A DNA stretch of 64,000 nt from Cyanobacteriota bacterium (GTDB taxonomy: Bacteria; Cyanobacteriota; Cyanobacteriia; Cyanobacteriales; Nostocaceae), in assembly GCA_046045965.1 (NCBI GenBank), contig JBJOKS010000001.1, positions 160,001 through 224,000 of the forward strand. The letters are read 5' to 3'. Under the pieces are notes generated by a model, which worked only from the letters and a program-made list of their open reading frames with translations, had not been told where the DNA came from and searched no databases. Every line of letters starts with the position of its first letter. Positions within the stretch are counted from its first letter, which is position 1. This document shows, piece after piece, positions 334-40,905 of this stretch. The position numbers and the translations under genes were made by a program.

Positions 334-549
334 GCCAGCGCCGTAGGCGATCGCACTTTTTGAGGTTGAATGATTTTAGCTCACGCAGAAGCGAAAAAGC
401 GTAAAGAATAAAAAAGTTTTAATAAGTCTAAGTTAATTTTAATATCTCTGTGTTCTCTGTGCCTCTGTGGTTCGTTATTTCATACAAAAATTGTTTTTAC
501 CCAAATCAAATCATTAATAATACATTGTTTTTATCGTATAAATCCTGAT

Positions 550-1008
550 TCAGACAACCTCTATTATTTCACCTTGAAACTGATGATTATCATCCAGAGA
601 AAAACTATTTAATTCACCCGCTTTCCCCTGTGCAACTGATACAATAATATAAGAATATTCTGCCCAAGCATAGAGTCTATCACATTCTGAAGGAATAGCA
701 GGATAATCAGGATGGGAATGAAAAATACCAATAATATTTAAATTGCGATTTCTCGCTTCTTTCTGTATTTGTAACATAAATTGAGGAGCGATCGCATATC
801 TTCTTCTGGTACTATATGATTCTTTGTCCTCTGTAAAATTAGCCTCCTCCGTATTCCACACATTTTCTGCTGGTATTACTTCTACAACAGTTTTTACCCC
901 ATTACTGAGATAACCCAGTATTAACCCACAACATTCATCAGGGTAGGTGTTTTCAGCATGAATGTTGATAATTTGCAAGTGTTCTGGGTAGATTTTTAGA
1001 TGATTCAT
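550..1008 (-). CDS. JAB/Mov34/MPN (M67) metallopeptidase, Mec-like
   Basis: YPDECCG and FHSHPDYPAIPSECD (HSHP...S..D JAMM motif); upstream of moeB. ATG at 1008 preferred over the TTG at 1029. Confidence 0.9.
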   Translation of the reverse strand: MNHLKIYPEHLQIINIHAENTYPDECCGLILGYLSNGVKTVVEVIPAENVWNTEEANFTEDKESYSTRRRYAIAPQFMLQIQKEARNRNLNIIGIFHSHPDYPAIPSECDRLYAWAEYSYIIVSVAQGKAGELNSFSLDDNHQFQGEIIEVV

Positions 1009-1214
1009 AGAAATTGAACTAAAACGCAAATATATCCATTAATTGCACAATTCTGAAAATAGTATCAATACTGCTACACAAAAATTTTTCTCTTTCGCAA
1101 GTTAGAGCAAATAAACTACTCAAAAGATAGAAGAAAATAAAATATAAATCTTATAAATTACAAATAAACATAAAGAGGTAATCAAGGCTAATTTTTGTCA
1201 TTACCATATTAATC

Positions 1215-1373
1215 CAATACTGTTCGGTTAAGGATTTTTGTAGGTTGGGTTGAACAAAGTGAAACCCAACAAACCCTTGTAAACGTTGGGTTTCGTTCCA
1301 TTGCTTCGCAACGCTAACGCGAACAACCCAACCTACGTGATTTCGTTGTTTTGAGTTTAACCGAAAAGTATTG
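1215..1373. mobile_element. 159-bp MITE with 17-bp terminal inverted repeats and 10-bp target duplication (Nezha/IS4-like architecture)
   Basis: CAATACTGTTCGGTTAA ... TTAACCGAAAAGTATTG (1 mismatch); CATATTAATC duplicated at 1205-1214 and 1374-1383. Confidence 0.85.
1240..1336. repeat. GTAG-type REP doublet (REPIN/BIME-like) nested in the MITE
   Basis: GTAGGTTGGGTTGAACAAAGTGAAACCCAAC ... GTTGGGTTTCGTTCC[insert]CAACCCAACCTAC. Confidence 0.8.
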
Positions 1374-1425
1374 CATATTAATCTCTATGTTCAGTTTGGT
1401 TGATTAGTTTTGTTTAGGGAGTTTT

Positions 1426-2256
1426 TTGATGTTTAATAAATCTGATTTTAACCATTTTAAATTCATTCCAAACCTGAATAAAATTCCAGTCATCATTGCT
1501 TTAGGAGCGATGGTGATAATGCTTCCAGCTTGTGAATTTGAAGACAGGAGAGAAGCCTTTGAACCTGTACCACCAGCAGATGTTGTTACTGAGACAGTTA
1601 CAGATCAAACAGATCAACTTATTGGAAAAACAGTCACAATTAGAAGTCAACCTATTAGGAAAATTAGCCCTTCAGCTTTTACAATCATAGATGAGGATAT
1701 GTTTGGTCCACAAAATATCCTCGTTATTAATGCCACAGGTGAACCTTTTCAGTTACCTGAAACAGCGAATACAGAAGTTCAAGTTACAGGACCAGTGCAA
1801 AGATTTAATCTAGCAGAGATTAATAGAAATTACAATTTAAATTTGCAGCCAAACTTGTATCAAGAATATGAAAATCAACCTGTGATTATTGCCAAATCTT
1901 CAGCACTATCACCCACACCAGGAGAACTCACTACCAACCCCAGCGCCTACTATGATAAAACATTAGCAGTCAAAGGCGAAATTAAAGACATACAAAGTCC
2001 AGTTGTATTCACATTGCATGAAGAGAAGTTACTAGGAACAACAGGCTTATTAGTATTACAAACTAAATCCGAACCAAGAGTCAATCAAGGAGATAAGGTA
2101 GTTGTAACAGGTGTATTGCGTCCATTTGTGGTAGCTGATTTGCAAAGAGATTATAATCTCACCTGGGATTTGAATTTACAAAGAAAGCTAGAAGCTGAAT
2201 ATCGCAATAAACCCGTGTTTGTGGCTACAGATGTTTACCTCAAAGCAGCTCGTTAG
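1426..2256 (+). CDS. Hypothetical lipoprotein with two internal repeat domains
   Basis: Hydrophobic stretch plus LPAC lipobox; duplicated unit (VQVTGPVQRF...RNYNLNL / VVVTGVLRPF...RDYNLTW). Confidence 0.75.
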   Translation: MMFNKSDFNHFKFIPNLNKIPVIIALGAMVIMLPACEFEDRREAFEPVPPADVVTETVTDQTDQLIGKTVTIRSQPIRKISPSAFTIIDEDMFGPQNILVINATGEPFQLPETANTEVQVTGPVQRFNLAEINRNYNLNLQPNLYQEYENQPVIIAKSSALSPTPGELTTNPSAYYDKTLAVKGEIKDIQSPVVFTLHEEKLLGTTGLLVLQTKSEPRVNQGDKVVVTGVLRPFVVADLQRDYNLTWDLNLQRKLEAEYRNKPVFVATDVYLKAAR

Positions 2257-9960: not shown

Positions 9961-10066
9961 CTTGATTTTTGCTTGGGAATTTGGGATTTTTATTCATTGT
10001 AAAAATATCTTGTGAAATATTTGCATTTTTTGGGTTTTTGTTTTATTATTGAAATTCATGGCACCT

Positions 10067-10153
10067 GGAGAGGTGGCCGAGTGGTTGAAGGCGCAGACCT
10101 GGAAAGTCTGTTATGCAGAAATGTATACGAGGGTTCGAATCCCTCCCTCTCCG
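10067..10153 (+). tRNA. tRNA-Ser (GGA)
   Basis: Acceptor GGAGAGG/CCTCTCC-G; anticodon arm CAGAC-CTGGAAA-GTCTG; long variable arm; T-arm GAGGG-TTCGAAT-CCCTC; CCA not encoded. Confidence 0.96.
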
Positions 10154-10182
10154 TTTATAAAGCAAATTTGAATATTTAAGTT

Positions 10183-10359: not shown

Positions 10360-10743
10360 ATGTCGGACACATCCAATTTTCAAATTACCATTGCTTTCAC
10401 TGATACAGACTTAGACAACGAAGACAAAAATCAGGAAGTGCAGAAGCTACTGAGTCAAATGCAGAAGCTAGATGAAATAGAAGACGTTAACCGCGTTCTT
10501 GACCCCAACCCCCCGGAGGGAAACAAAGCTGGAGGAGGTTTTTTACCCGGACTACTAACAGCACAAGTTAACCCAGCCAACTTTTTGAAATTATTTGGAT
10601 TTTTGGCAGAACGTTTGGGTAACAAACCGATTAAACTCAATGTTAAAGCCCCAGATGGTCGGGAAATAAACGTCGAAGCCAGCAGTAAAGAAGAATTTGA
10701 ATTTGCTTGGCAAAAAGCACAAGATTTTATTAATAACAAATAA
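10360..10743 (+). CDS. Effector-associated constant component (EACC1)-like protein
   Basis: Acidic helix, P-PEGNKAGG turn, hydrophobic hairpin, then beta strands; ends 9 nt before a caspase-domain gene. Family assigned from pattern and context. Confidence 0.6.
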   Translation: MSDTSNFQITIAFTDTDLDNEDKNQEVQKLLSQMQKLDEIEDVNRVLDPNPPEGNKAGGGFLPGLLTAQVNPANFLKLFGFLAERLGNKPIKLNVKAPDGREINVEASSKEEFEFAWQKAQDFINNK

Positions 10744-10752
10744 GGCTGGACA

Positions 10753-12525
10753 ATGGCGAGAATTGCACTATTGATAGGAGTAAGTGAATATGAACCAGGC
10801 TTAAATCGACTGGCTGGGGCTGTAAAAGATGTGGACGCAATGCGGCGAGTTTTACAGCATCCAGAAATGGGTGGTTTTGCTGAGAGTGAAATTATAGTCA
10901 TGCAAAATCCCCAACGACAGGATATGGAAAATGCTATTGAAAAGCTTTTTGCTAACCGTCAGAAAGATGATTTATTGTTGCTTTATTTCTCCGGTCATGG
11001 AATTACAGATGATAGTGGGAGGTTATATCTAACTAATAGCCAAACTCACAAATATGACAATGGTAATTTAGTTATAACTAGTGCTACTTCTGCCAGTTTA
11101 ATACATCAATTTATGGACAATGGGCATTGTAAGTCTAAACGACAGGTGATTATTCTTGACTGTTGTTATAGCGGAGCTTTTGCGGAAGGGATGAAAGTAA
11201 AAGATGGTGGTAGTGTAGATATTAATAAGCAATTAGGAGGAAAAGGTAGGGCAGTTTTGACTTCTTCCTCTTGTGGCGAATATTCTTTTGAACAAAGAGG
11301 AGAAGAATTATCAGTTTATACCCGTTACATTGTTGAAGGTATTGAAACTGGTGCGGCTGATACTGACAACGATGGTATGATTTCTGTGGACGAATTACAT
11401 GAATATGCCTTCAAAAAAGTGCAGGAAGCAGCACCAGCAATGAGTCCAAAAATTTATGCTGTGGAAGAAGGTTATAAAATTAAGGTAGCAAATGCACCTG
11501 TTGGTAATCCCAAATTAAAATATCGCAAGGAAGTAGAAAAATATTTACGAGATGGTAAAATTTCAACTATTGGTAATCGAATTTTAAAACGTTATCAAAA
11601 TGAATTGGGTTTATCAGATGATGAAGTTAAGGAAATACAGGATGAAGTTTTAGAACCTATTCGTAGATATCAAGCTAATTTGAAAGAGTATGAAGAAGCT
11701 TTGCGAGAAGCTTTGGAAGATGAAACAAGTCTTAGCCAAGAGACACAAAATGAGTTAAAACACTTTCAGCAAGTTTTACAACTTAGAGATGAGGATGTAG
11801 AACCTATTCACGATAGGTTAATTTTGTCTTCAAATCATCCCTCAGAACAAACAATCATTGCACCTCCTCAAACTACTCAACCTTTAGAACTGCTTAACTC
11901 ATATCTTGGTTCTCAACCAAACATTTCAGCAGTTGAGGCTGGAGAGATTATTAAGTCAGGTCAAAATATACAAGCTCCTACTCAAACAGATGACCTGTCA
12001 TCAGAAAGAGGCATAGACTACACCACACTGCGCGACTTACTAGCAGCACAAAAATGGCAGGAAGCAGATACAGAAACCTACGAAGTAATGATTAAAGCTG
12101 TAGGTAAAAAGTCTGGGGACTGGTTTACAAGTGATGAATTATTAAATTTCCCATGTAAAGACCTCCGCACAATTGACCAATTGTGGGTAAAATACAGTAA
12201 TGGACGATTTGGGTTTAGCGTCCAAAAGGAAATTTACTTGAGTGTTGGTGGTAAGCCTGATGGCGAGTATGACTCAGTTGCCTGGGTTAGATTTGCTAAA
12301 AAAGTAGGATGGAAAAACGAAGAAGATAAATGGATAGAAAAGGTAAAATTTTATACCTCAGCCCCGAAAGGACACTTACCTGTAAGTTTGGATTGGAGAT
12401 TAAGTTGGATAGAGGATGAATGGGAAGGATTAGAAGGATTGAGTTGGGAGTTATGGGAAGTATGGATGAGTTGGGTGGTTGGTTTCTCTTCTCTCGCATC
12501 GAGACTTGTAAACTGTAACATCTAA
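10753..12525 (+). CDS. Caspase-like (peptidase C14) protein with helical linker and C-terminal GUN4 domain
   Basis: ALLIGVSEY; YFSGHG (His) and ILDCCYSG (Cys) dyad; GUN4 motifs DYTTLRDLLAAQKWQEADTET, FPCKDLRTIDQLWVKYSNGRFGFSVQ, APKGHLP. Confidence 0.92.
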   Translation: MARIALLIGVSEYEPGLNRLAGAVKDVDAMRRVLQHPEMGGFAESEIIVMQNPQRQDMENAIEKLFANRQKDDLLLLYFSGHGITDDSGRLYLTNSQTHKYDNGNLVITSATSASLIHQFMDNGHCKSKRQVIILDCCYSGAFAEGMKVKDGGSVDINKQLGGKGRAVLTSSSCGEYSFEQRGEELSVYTRYIVEGIETGAADTDNDGMISVDELHEYAFKKVQEAAPAMSPKIYAVEEGYKIKVANAPVGNPKLKYRKEVEKYLRDGKISTIGNRILKRYQNELGLSDDEVKEIQDEVLEPIRRYQANLKEYEEALREALEDETSLSQETQNELKHFQQVLQLRDEDVEPIHDRLILSSNHPSEQTIIAPPQTTQPLELLNSYLGSQPNISAVEAGEIIKSGQNIQAPTQTDDLSSERGIDYTTLRDLLAAQKWQEADTETYEVMIKAVGKKSGDWFTSDELLNFPCKDLRTIDQLWVKYSNGRFGFSVQKEIYLSVGGKPDGEYDSVAWVRFAKKVGWKNEEDKWIEKVKFYTSAPKGHLPVSLDWRLSWIEDEWEGLEGLSWELWEVWMSWVVGFSSLASRLVNCNI

Positions 12526-12558
12526 GGCTTTCAGAAATCTGTAAATATTTATTACAAC

Positions 12559-13314
12559 CTACTTTCCCACGGAAGAATCAACATTTGCGAATTTCGTTAC
12601 CTGGCACGGCGGGGTTATCTCCTGCACCTCCGTACTTTCTGTTACCCTCTGCTTATCCCAAGGTAAACTCATCTGTCCTGGTGACTTCTTGCTTTTACCG
12701 CTTTTCTTCATCGACGGTAAAAACCGACTTCCCCAATAGTTTCTTTTTTCTGGTTTGGCCTTTGGTTTATACTTCTTGCAAAACCGCCGATATTTAGCTG
12801 CACATTCTTCCAGAGTCCTCCCCAATTGCAAAAATGCCGGATGCCATTGAGTGATACCATCATTACTCAAGCGGTCATGAGTACCATAATTACTAAAATC
12901 ATAAAAAAAGCCTTGTTGTATTCCTGCTGCTTTCGGGTTAGCGTGGATATAGCGTAAAGTATTTAAGGCACGACGATAATCTGTATTTTCAAACCCTGTA
13001 CTGTGGTATCGCTTTTCCCAAAAATGACCTGTACGGTTCAGCATCCGATTAAAACACATAGCAGTGTACCAGTTTAACCAGTGCATAACTTTTGGTAATT
13101 CTTCTGGCTGTTTTGGTTCTAGGAGATAATGAACATGATTACTCATAATGCACAGTGCATAGAGTTTAAAACCATACTTTTGTTGTGCTTTTTTAATCGC
13201 ATAAAGAAAAACTTCACGACATTCTAACCGTGTAAGTCGAAATTCGCGGTTATTGCAACGGGTAGTGATGTGATAACAGAAACCTGGTTGAAAATTGCGT
13301 TTTGGACGAGACAT
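12559..13314 (-). CDS. Y1 HUH transposase/nuclease, REP-associated tyrosine transposase (RAYT)-like
   Basis: YHITTRCNN, CIMSNHVHYL (HUH), GHFWEKRY, YIHANP (catalytic Tyr), FSNY. ATG at 13314 preferred. Confidence 0.88.
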   Translation of the reverse strand: MSRPKRNFQPGFCYHITTRCNNREFRLTRLECREVFLYAIKKAQQKYGFKLYALCIMSNHVHYLLEPKQPEELPKVMHWLNWYTAMCFNRMLNRTGHFWEKRYHSTGFENTDYRRALNTLRYIHANPKAAGIQQGFFYDFSNYGTHDRLSNDGITQWHPAFLQLGRTLEECAAKYRRFCKKYKPKAKPEKRNYWGSRFLPSMKKSGKSKKSPGQMSLPWDKQRVTESTEVQEITPPCQVTKFANVDSSVGK

Positions 13315-13327
13315 GGAGATAACAATT

Positions 13328-13483
13328 TTAGGCAAATAATTCACCACCAGCAGACCGGGGTATGATATGCTCAAATTCAAAAGTTGTAACTGTTAAATAT
13401 TCAGCAGTACGACAGTAAGCACAACAATCTGAAAAACAATGACGAATTTTTGTTTGTAATTCAACAGAAATATAAACACTCAC
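13328..13483 (-). pseudogene. Truncated HNH endonuclease
   Basis: Manual translation MSVYISVELQTKIRHCFSDCCAYCRTAEYLTVTTFEFEHIIPRSAGGELFA*: has CxxC and EHIIPxSxGG but lacks the N and second CxxC; GTGA overlap with the upstream gene. Confidence 0.85.
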
Positions 13484-13821
13484 GCTACTCTAGATTTGTT
13501 TTGAAGTTGGTTTAATGTATATCTTGCTCTAGTTTTAAGAATATTCAATTGATCAATCTGTGCTATTAATCTTTCTAAAGTTTCACTTTCTTCATTTGAC
13601 AATTGATTCTCAGAATTTTTCATTAATAACTCATCTAATCGAATCTGACTTTTAAGAGACAAAGAAGTTTCTGCTAAAGCTTGCAACTCATCCAAACTTA
13701 AACCAATCAATAATTCAGTATCTGCTGATAAATTGGTTAGCTGTTGGTAAGTTTCCAGATTTAACAATACACCAACTTTTTCTCCCTGGGTATTAGTTAT
13801 ATACTGCACTGATTCAGACAT
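13480..13821 (-). CDS. Hypothetical antitoxin-like partner of the HNH gene
   Basis: 113-aa ORF translationally coupled to the HNH remnant; C-terminal RLDELL...LKTRA helix. Confidence 0.7.
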   Translation of the reverse strand: MSESVQYITNTQGEKVGVLLNLETYQQLTNLSADTELLIGLSLDELQALAETSLSLKSQIRLDELLMKNSENQLSNEESETLERLIAQIDQLNILKTRARYTLNQLQNKSRVA

Positions 13822-38060: not shown

Positions 38061-38161
38061 GTAGGTTGGGTTAAGCAACAGCGCAACCCAACAAACCACC
38101 CAAAATATTGGGTTTACTTCTGTTCTCAAATGTTGGGTTTCCTCACATCAACCCAACCTAC
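38061..38161. repeat. GTAG REP doublet inside the cox operon
   Basis: GTAGGTTGGGTTAAGCAACAGCGCAACCCAAC ... GTTGGGTTTCCTCACATCAACCCAACCTAC. Confidence 0.8.
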
Positions 38162-40824: not shown

Positions 40825-40905
40825 GTAGGTTGGGTTGACGTGAGGAAACCCAACATTAATAAAATTTAGGGTTTGAGTTGGGTTTCGTTCCTCAACCCAA
40901 CCTAC
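40825..40905. repeat. GTAG REP doublet
   Basis: GTAGGTTGGGTTGACGTGAGGAAACCCAAC ... GTTGGGTTTCGTTCCTCAACCCAACCTAC. Confidence 0.85.

Follow-up and report, generated by a model that had tools for sequence, protein, structure and literature searches.

The 64,000-nucleotide (nt) stretch of DNA analyzed here, referred to as the window, covers positions 160,001 to 224,000 of contig JBJOKS010000001.1 (assembly GCA_046045965.1) from a Nostocaceae cyanobacterium. It contains an EACC1-like gene (10360 to 10743, forward strand, 127 amino acids), followed by a gene encoding a caspase of the EACC1-associated type joined through a linker to a GUN4 domain (10753 to 12525, forward strand, 590 amino acids). 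The 3' end of this second gene, the target gene of this study, includes a variable tract of 103 nt (12382 to 12484, forward strand) and runs into a conserved cis block of 123 nt (12485 to 12607). The target gene faces a convergent gene for a TnpA-REP-like Y1 HUH enzyme of 251 amino acids (12559 to 13314, reverse strand, with its ATG at 13314 and its stop at 12559). The open reading frames confirmed the arrangement given in a preliminary description of this DNA, in which the EACC1-like and caspase-GUN4 genes converge on the HUH gene across a stop-to-stop gap of 33 nt. In the homologous loci L031 and L032 this gap is 52 and 66 nt, respectively.

The identity proposed earlier for the caspase-GUN4 protein held, as it matches NF047832 ("caspase, EACC1-associated type") at 166 bits against a cutoff of 140 and both Pfam Peptidase_C14 (PF00656) and GUN4 (PF05419) above their cutoffs. 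The EACC1-like protein did not pass in the same way: its score against Pfam EACC1 (PF19953) was 17.4 bits (E 0.0046), below the cutoff of 23.6. In the 590-residue protein, His82 and Cys138, which we take to be the caspase catalytic dyad, fall within SGHG and DCC motifs. PADLOC matched PD-T4-6 over the GUN4 part and also the caspase, as sequence likeness only. The predicted GUN4 domain superposed on 4XKC with a Z score of 18.7 and a root mean square deviation of 2.0 over 143 aligned residues; the tract residues were modelled at a predicted local distance difference test (pLDDT) score of 51 to 59, and the frame-shifted ending was modelled as the last helix. According to the available text of PMC1084334, Leu210, Arg214 and Arg217 of Synechocystis GUN4 bind porphyrin. 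When residues are mapped through the canonical copy on contig C8, the segment after GHLP that would hold these residues is not kept in the window's GUN4, and the variable tract appears to occupy its place.

The HUH protein matches Pfam Y1_Tnp (PF01797) at 69 bits (cutoff, 23), and its scores against the RAYT model NF047646 (72.3 bits; cutoff, 80) and NF033573 (23 bits; cutoff, 55) are below the cutoffs. His60, His62 and Tyr122 are intact, and the HuH motif and the tyrosine are invariant across 35 homologs. The long basic C-terminal extension noted earlier is real, with many residues invariant in the same homologs; it is poorly modelled and gave no match to a Pfam helix-turn-helix (HTH) domain. 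A QMSLP motif at residues 214 to 218 is also conserved. The top fold match of the protein model, which is of low confidence (pLDDT 56), was 4ER8 (E 5e-4), and a sequence search against solved structures gave nothing significant. The enzyme is under purifying selection (18 synonymous against 4 changed codons between the window's gene and L031). A 31-nt deletion and frameshift near 12618 have removed the conserved C-terminal helix, which is retained in 71 of 76 full-length homologs, and the stop at 12559 exists because of this event. The loss of the helix suggests that the window's copy is probably impaired. The nuclease stop had also been read as overlapping the start of a repetitive extragenic palindromic (REP) sequence. 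The octamer GTAGGTTG is present at the stop, but no palindrome follows it. Since the stop arose by the deletion and the closest homologs have another sequence in place of the octamer, the overlap is an accident.

A scan of genome contigs confirmed 447 relatives of the HUH enzyme, and locus counts refer to the best 80 of these (69 to 97% identical), all of them cyanobacterial where named. A convergent GUN4 was found no more than 1.5 kb downstream of the HUH gene in 69 of the 80 loci, one of them a 28-residue fragment, and in 68 of the 75 loci with at least 1 kb of downstream sequence. No locus (0/80) had GUN4 upstream of the HUH gene or on the same strand. The GUN4 profile behind these counts was built from the same loci; tblastn with no query but the window's GUN4 domain led to a similar result, and all nine proteins tested against Pfam were confirmed to have GUN4. 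Three distant RAYTs (32% identity) had neither GUN4 nor the 10-nt tag described below. The suggestion that the enzyme is tied to the GUN4 3' end therefore stands, with GUN4 at 69 of 80 loci, no conserved left end and an adjoining tract that is replaced between relatives; the opposite case, homologs in random contexts with IS200- or REP-type ends and no GUN4 enrichment, does not agree with the data. The unit is not specific to the EACC1-caspase pair, as had been supposed. By tblastn, caspase-GUN4 adjoins the HUH gene in only 7 of 80 loci, and an EACC1-like neighbor cluster is present in 4 of 80. Across the loci, GUN4 is fused to caspase, kinase, TIR, AAA_35, NACHT, CHAT or trypsin domains. Because the fusion partners vary, the EACC1-caspase pair is one of many front ends, and it is incidental to the module. 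Of 251 genomes sampled from the whole phylum, 31 contained the HUH family (E 1e-15), which was also detected in 5 plasmid records; no match was found in 50,697 phage records. The window's gene is single copy in its own genome. In L034, L039 to L041 and L063, arrays of 21-nt tandem repeats lie immediately upstream of the HUH start codon.

The variable tract has sharp boundaries. Conservation falls to background after the codons of the GHLP motif (12370 to 12381, forward strand), which form the left anchor, and returns sharply at 12485. The window's tract consists of 43 G, 32 T and 28 A and has no C. Across 56 GUN4 tracts, the length ranges from 15 to 147 nt, the three frames are used 16, 24 and 16 times, and the composition (A 0.15, C 0.14, G 0.39, T 0.32) is equal at the three codon positions. 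Stops make up 11 of 1172 codons in frame, compared with 52 of 1156 and 33 of 1132 in the other two frames, a three- to fivefold depletion, and 48 of the 56 tracts read through. Because all frames are used, composition does not depend on codon position and in-frame stops are depleted, the tract bases look as if codons played no part in their generation and selection filtered them afterwards. Left-anchor sequence recurs as direct copies in 10 of the 56 tracts, compared with 1.8 in shuffles (maximum, 7).

The tract is also replaced between close relatives. In pairs whose upstream 300 nt are 80 to 95% identical, tract identity was at the level of shuffles (29 pairs, with one self-duplication beside them). 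Genome G123 has three copies that are identical at 123 of 123 block bases and at 589 to 596 of 600 downstream bases, and the tracts of these copies, of 79, 90 and 19 nt, are unrelated. The loci L031, L032 and L027 are syntenic orthologs of the window locus and together with it present four different tracts, with the block 87 to 93% kept. Further variable sites were observed. At 12320 to 12370 of the window, a second variable patch, in frame, occupies the GUN4 loop left of the GHLP anchor and has approximately 0.4 identity to L032. On contig C86 of genome G000 (about 400 to 2000, reverse strand), a kinase carries three tandem GUN4 domains, each with its own tract and a different frame or block-start version. 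On contig C9 of the same genome, near 159330 to 159480 (reverse strand), an orphan GHLP, tract and block start lie beside a REP with no GUN4 core upstream.

The block is 123 nt long in 49 of 62 nonredundant copies. Whichever of the three forward frames is read, its first approximately 40 nt encode an ending for the protein and a stop, whose position is constant in 54, 55 and 50 of the 62 sequences for the respective frames; one of the three encoded endings resembles the canonical GUN4 end. With such a constant segment to close the protein whatever the frame, a junction can have any length and still be expressed. Two hairpins had been described at the junction, and both are present. The first, a hairpin of 5 bp at 12492 to 12504 (forward strand), close to the block edge that adjoins the tract, is modestly conserved, being perfect in 29 of 65 elements, with a stem of at least 4 bp in 69% compared with 50% in column shuffles. 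The second (12540 to 12556) is perfect in 6 of 62 elements and is not conserved. A structured RNA or single-stranded DNA (ssDNA) in the block was rejected, as the consensus fold was empty on both strands with a mean z of about 0. The top covarying block columns were not complementary, the Rfam scan found only tRNA, and neither a promoter nor a terminator was found in the block.

The far end of the block carries, on the HUH strand, the 10-nt tag GTGCCAGGTA (12598 to 12607, reverse strand). With at most one mismatch, the tag was present in 87 of 96 loci (4 further loci were dropped as short or without the C terminus), on the wrong strand in 0 of 96 and upstream in 2 of 73, against a background of 6 of 561 windows. 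The exact 10-mer occurs twice in this genome. The tag is a candidate recognition site of the enzyme. In L046 and L050, short tandem duplications that include the tag lie within the HUH 3' end.

The same tag is common to four target classes, namely, GUN4, Nif11 precursors of the prochlorosin type, cyanobactin precursors and barrel-like proteins. HUH homologs with 63 to 65% identity keep the tag and face tandem anacyclamide-type precursors (TIGR04446, over the cutoff) located between PatA- and PatF-like genes. In a search of the cyanobactin family, the tag was found downstream of 15 of the 26 precursors with enough downstream sequence (6 short rows were dropped), 14 of them at 122 to 127 nt from the stop. 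Among homologs from small-genome cyanobacteria (45 to 52% identity), the tag was present in 20 of 22, approximately 160 nt beyond the matched gene and outside the HUH reading frame. These homologs face Nif11-leader precursors (6), barrel-like proteins (11) or other genes (5); the barrel-like proteins were typed by motif, with one weak Pfam OMP match. When metagenomes were scanned for nothing but a 16-nt tag pattern, 119 loci were obtained. The 80 examined included 23 facing GUN4 (8), Nif11 (8), barrel-like proteins (5) or cyanobactin precursors (2); 4 had the HUH gene only, and in 53 nothing was recognized, these probably being chance matches. A quick tree of 102 proteins placed the cyanobactin-facing enzymes and the small-genome enzymes each in a clade of their own with a support of 100, although the placement of these long branches inside the GUN4-facing radiation is unsure and the N-terminal labels are motif based. 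The three-frame block, the 10-nt tag and the relatives facing precursors of ribosomally synthesized and posttranslationally modified peptides are absent from the preliminary description. The barrel-like proteins facing the HUH gene in L132 to L137 and L301 to L329 have wholly different tails, often containing Cys, after a conserved motif. A further class of precursor may be present in L161 and L162, where the HUH gene and tag face a short open reading frame whose motif resembles a double-glycine leader.

Taken together, a target 3' end, a variable tract, a fixed tagged block and a convergent Y1 HUH gene form a module that we consider, with somewhat better than even confidence, to be a target-tethered nick-and-rejoin diversifier. 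The enzyme would be held at the 10-nt tag and would nick ssDNA near the tract-block edge. In a one-ended reaction, the block side would be protected, and the free 3' end would be trimmed, re-extended by host polymerases and then rejoined, and the ligand-binding tip of GUN4 would thereby be rewritten. The available text of PMC6006769 states that HUH enzymes cut ssDNA and remain attached to the new 5' end, and the QMSLP motif resembles the clamp-binding consensus quoted there; such a beta-clamp-like motif would place the enzyme at the replication fork with access to ssDNA. The nicked strand would more likely be the top one, given how often tracts contain repeats of the left anchor in direct orientation, and slipped re-priming would fit these repeats. 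The host could benefit, for example, through new sensor specificities. Whether the clade is a general diversifier of junctions that works without a reverse transcriptase (RT), guided by the tag and acting on GUN4 tips, prochlorosin cores and anacyclamide-type cyanobactin cores, is a broader proposal on which we are evenly divided. No co-encoded polymerase or RT was found among the recurrent neighbors of the 80 loci.

Several observations weigh against the diversifier. The orthologs L031 and L027 share part of their tract (0.50 versus 0.35), one pair of six. Contigs from three other studies carry the window's tract without a single letter changed (in full in X3, in part in X4 and X5), a result limited by the fact that contigs drop rare variants. 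An impaired enzyme copy would fit this unchanged tract. The contigs of X3, an RNA run whose library can also contain DNA, cover most of the region. Copies of the block start occur in 6 of 56 tracts compared with 2.6 in shuffles (maximum, 7), which is not above chance, and the first and last 10 nt of the tract are equally unconserved in 42 close pairs. With no excess of block-start copies and no more-conserved tract end, the data place only weak constraints on the nick site and strand. The tag lies 105 to 155 nt from the variable zone, at a distance that differs by target class, whereas IS608-type enzymes have a short reach. This genome has eleven further GUN4-type ends with variable tracts, which carry only the first 30 to 65 nt of the block and lack the tag and HUH gene; they may be relics, targets acted on in trans or evidence that the enzyme is dispensable. 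The G/T skew is confined to GUN4 tracts and is absent from Nif11 cores, barrel tails and cyanobactin cores (A 0.26, C 0.22, G 0.21, T 0.32 in the last), and therefore one synthesis mechanism fails to explain all targets. One Nif11 (procA)-facing homolog, at L131:563-1312 (forward strand), carries Thr at the position of the catalytic Tyr. The near-identical copies found within a genome, like those on plasmids, are traits of mobile elements. Finally, the loci are related, and the counts are non-independent draws.

Some specific routes to tract variation were rejected. The preliminary description had suggested editing or swapping of the GUN4 3' end; for a swap from donor cassettes, no donor of at least 25 nt was found in this genome. 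Inverted flank copies in tracts were not above shuffles, which rejects snap-back synthesis, and polar tract growth was rejected on the equal lack of conservation at the two tract ends. C|T is the cut site of E. coli TnpA-REP, and a depletion of CT from repeated cutting at C|T was not supported (odds ratio, 1.03).

Paralogous target genes also acquire the module from one another, and for this reason a selfish element with tolerated scars is a serious rival, although we judge it unlikely. It would be a target-specific, one-ended mobile element that inserts into the 3' ends of permissive genes or converts them, the block being its end and the messy junctions the scars. Near-identical copies of HUH gene plus block face different GUN4 genes in the single genome G123, and 57 HUH pairs of at least 90% identity flank GUN4 cores that are only 32 to 94% identical. 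The small-genome relatives have up to 10 matches per genome, two with equal scores, and the plasmid records, the many fragments and the truncated HNH gene abutted by the window's gene also suit such an element. However, no conserved DNA lies upstream of the start codon in 77 loci, and the gene is single copy in this genome. L031, L032 and L027 keep their chromosomal position, and their tract changed while the element stayed. Random contexts are almost never observed, and two of the four target classes are known for hypervariable cores.

Less probable still is that the enzyme only spreads or anchors the module and that host slippage, G-quadruplex breaks and paralog recombination vary the tract under diversifying selection. 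Internal tandem repeats in 10 of 56 tracts and in-frame indels approximately 60 nt left of the anchor would agree with host processes, and the orphan GUN4 ends without tag or HUH gene are equally variable. The preprint on the picocyanobacterial procA genes itself notes no strong evidence of causality (10.1101/2020.03.09.984088). On the other hand, tracts cannot be aligned between copies with flanks that are 97 to 100% identical, which makes gradual slippage an unlikely source, and the tag is strictly oriented and spaced relative to four unrelated targets. The last explanation, ligation by the enzyme of captured short ssDNA fragments from the cell or an invader into a record-like or templated repertoire, is highly improbable: among 12 tracts of this genome, 7 have a match at another place in it that outscores 90% of their shuffles (best, 16 to 22 nt), compared with 1 of 34 foreign tracts, and HUH enzymes join single strands according to the available text of PMC6006769, but approximately 30% of random native segments match likewise (60 + 60 segments), no match scores 25, and the G/T skew is unlike bulk genomic DNA.

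The surroundings of the module in the window include a tRNA-Ser(GGA) gene just upstream of the two-gene unit (10066 to 10154, forward strand, Rfam) and a truncated HNH gene that ends about 20 nt before the HUH start codon (13340 to 13486, reverse strand; HNH_5, 23.6 bits, below the cutoff of 27.5). In the region from 13340 to 13821 (reverse strand), an antitoxin-like gene is followed by this HNH gene, which ends after approximately 49 codons. L032 has another small gene in this place, which makes the region a variable patch of the toxin-antitoxin type. REP doublets of the GTAGGTTGGG type lie at 1240 to 1336, 38061 to 38161 and 40825 to 40905 of the window and are unrelated to the HUH gene; the REP 10-mer of this type has 138 matches in the genome.

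By the features tested, the module is not a REPtron, an IS200 element or a diversity-generating retroelement (DGR). As noted in the preliminary description, full REPs do not flank the HUH gene: no REP-like GTRG plus stem was found within 300 nt on either side. In the homologous loci, REP-like flanks occurred upstream in 8 of 75 and downstream in 3 of 75, compared with a background of 6.7%. A REP link was rejected, as REPs are not enriched beside the family. The conserved ends with subterminal hairpins of IS200/IS605 elements were not found, since the DNA upstream of the HUH start codon is unconserved (77 loci) and the block has no consensus fold. As to the near-identical multicopy trait, there is one copy in the window's genome and three in G123, and convincing terminal repeats of the TIRYT type were absent from the HUH loci. 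The protein has the features of TnpA-REP subclass 2.1 (RAYT group 1), namely, NHVH, W[EQ], YIxxNP, a long protein and no REPs. The groups and subclasses are defined in the available texts of PMC5581495 and PMC6006769, and the latter tabulates the Y1 HuH core, NHVH, FWE and YIxxNP of the window's enzyme for subclass 2.1. The top fold match to the E. coli protein 4ER8 and the low copy number are further similarities to RAYTs and REPtrons. In contrast to REPtrons, flanking REPs and a Pfam HTH match are absent, and the pairing with a coding target is fixed. The likeness to DGRs is that kinase, caspase, TIR, CHAT and NACHT proteins end in a variable ligand-binding tip at the C terminus, with cis elements on the 3' side of the variable region, as far as the available texts of PMC7517822 and PMC7159879 describe them. 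Unlike DGRs, however, the module has neither an RT (no RT family by eye among the 32 most recurrent neighbor clusters of the 80 loci) nor a template repeat for the tracts in this genome, its tracts change length in any frame, where DGRs make adenine-specific substitutions at fixed length, and GUN4 is not a C-type lectin fold.

Few targeted diversification mechanisms are known in bacteria, and the hypervariability of cyanobactin and prochlorosin cores between fixed flanks is an open question. With one enzyme clade and one tag at four unrelated variable gene ends, a hedged, single-family proposal becomes experimentally testable, and a named enzyme, substrate, tag and catalytic mutant are available for direct experiment. 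A role as variable receptors, and not as tetrapyrrole sensors, is also suggested for the many GUN4 fusions on kinase, TIR, NACHT and caspase proteins. If the proposal is true, the module would offer a compact tool for localized library generation. No literature on the GUN4-HUH pair or the 10-nt tag was found in a search that reached few subscription papers. The available texts of PMC7159879, PMC8195603, PMC7517822 and PMC10783134 mention GUN4 or transposases with no link between them.

The EACC1-caspase systems resemble the window locus in having an EACC1-like gene and, after it, a caspase of the EACC1-associated type whose C-terminal domain varies, and an anti-invader or cell death role has been proposed for them (PMC7159879, available text). 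The same text treats GUN4 as a tetrapyrrole sensor, with no transposase link, whereas at the window locus the porphyrin-binding segment appears to be replaced. In the sph (PMC6162287) and art (PMC4663559) cyanobactin clusters, a transposase between the E and F genes is listed without comment in the available texts. This layout matches L140 and L141, and the likeness is one of layout only.

The closest known system is that of marine picocyanobacteria, in which procA genes face tnpA-REP tail to tail and a diversifying recombination has been proposed (bioRxiv 10.1101/2020.03.09.984088). The preprint assigns these enzymes to TnpA-REP subclass 2.1, calls the link unique to picocyanobacterial lanthipeptides and later notes that causality is open. 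The enzymes belong to the same clade, with 51% identity over 225 residues to a Nif11-facing homolog whose intergenic DNA matches the hairpin consensus of the preprint at 31 of 35 positions in our own comparison. The tail-to-tail layout, the conserved spacer and the variation at the 3' part of the target are also shared. The module described here differs in its G/T-skewed tract, in the block that ends the protein in three frames and in its 10-nt tag, which is shared among the target classes here and is not named in the preprint. The GUN4, cyanobactin and barrel-like targets extend beyond procA and are new relative to that work.

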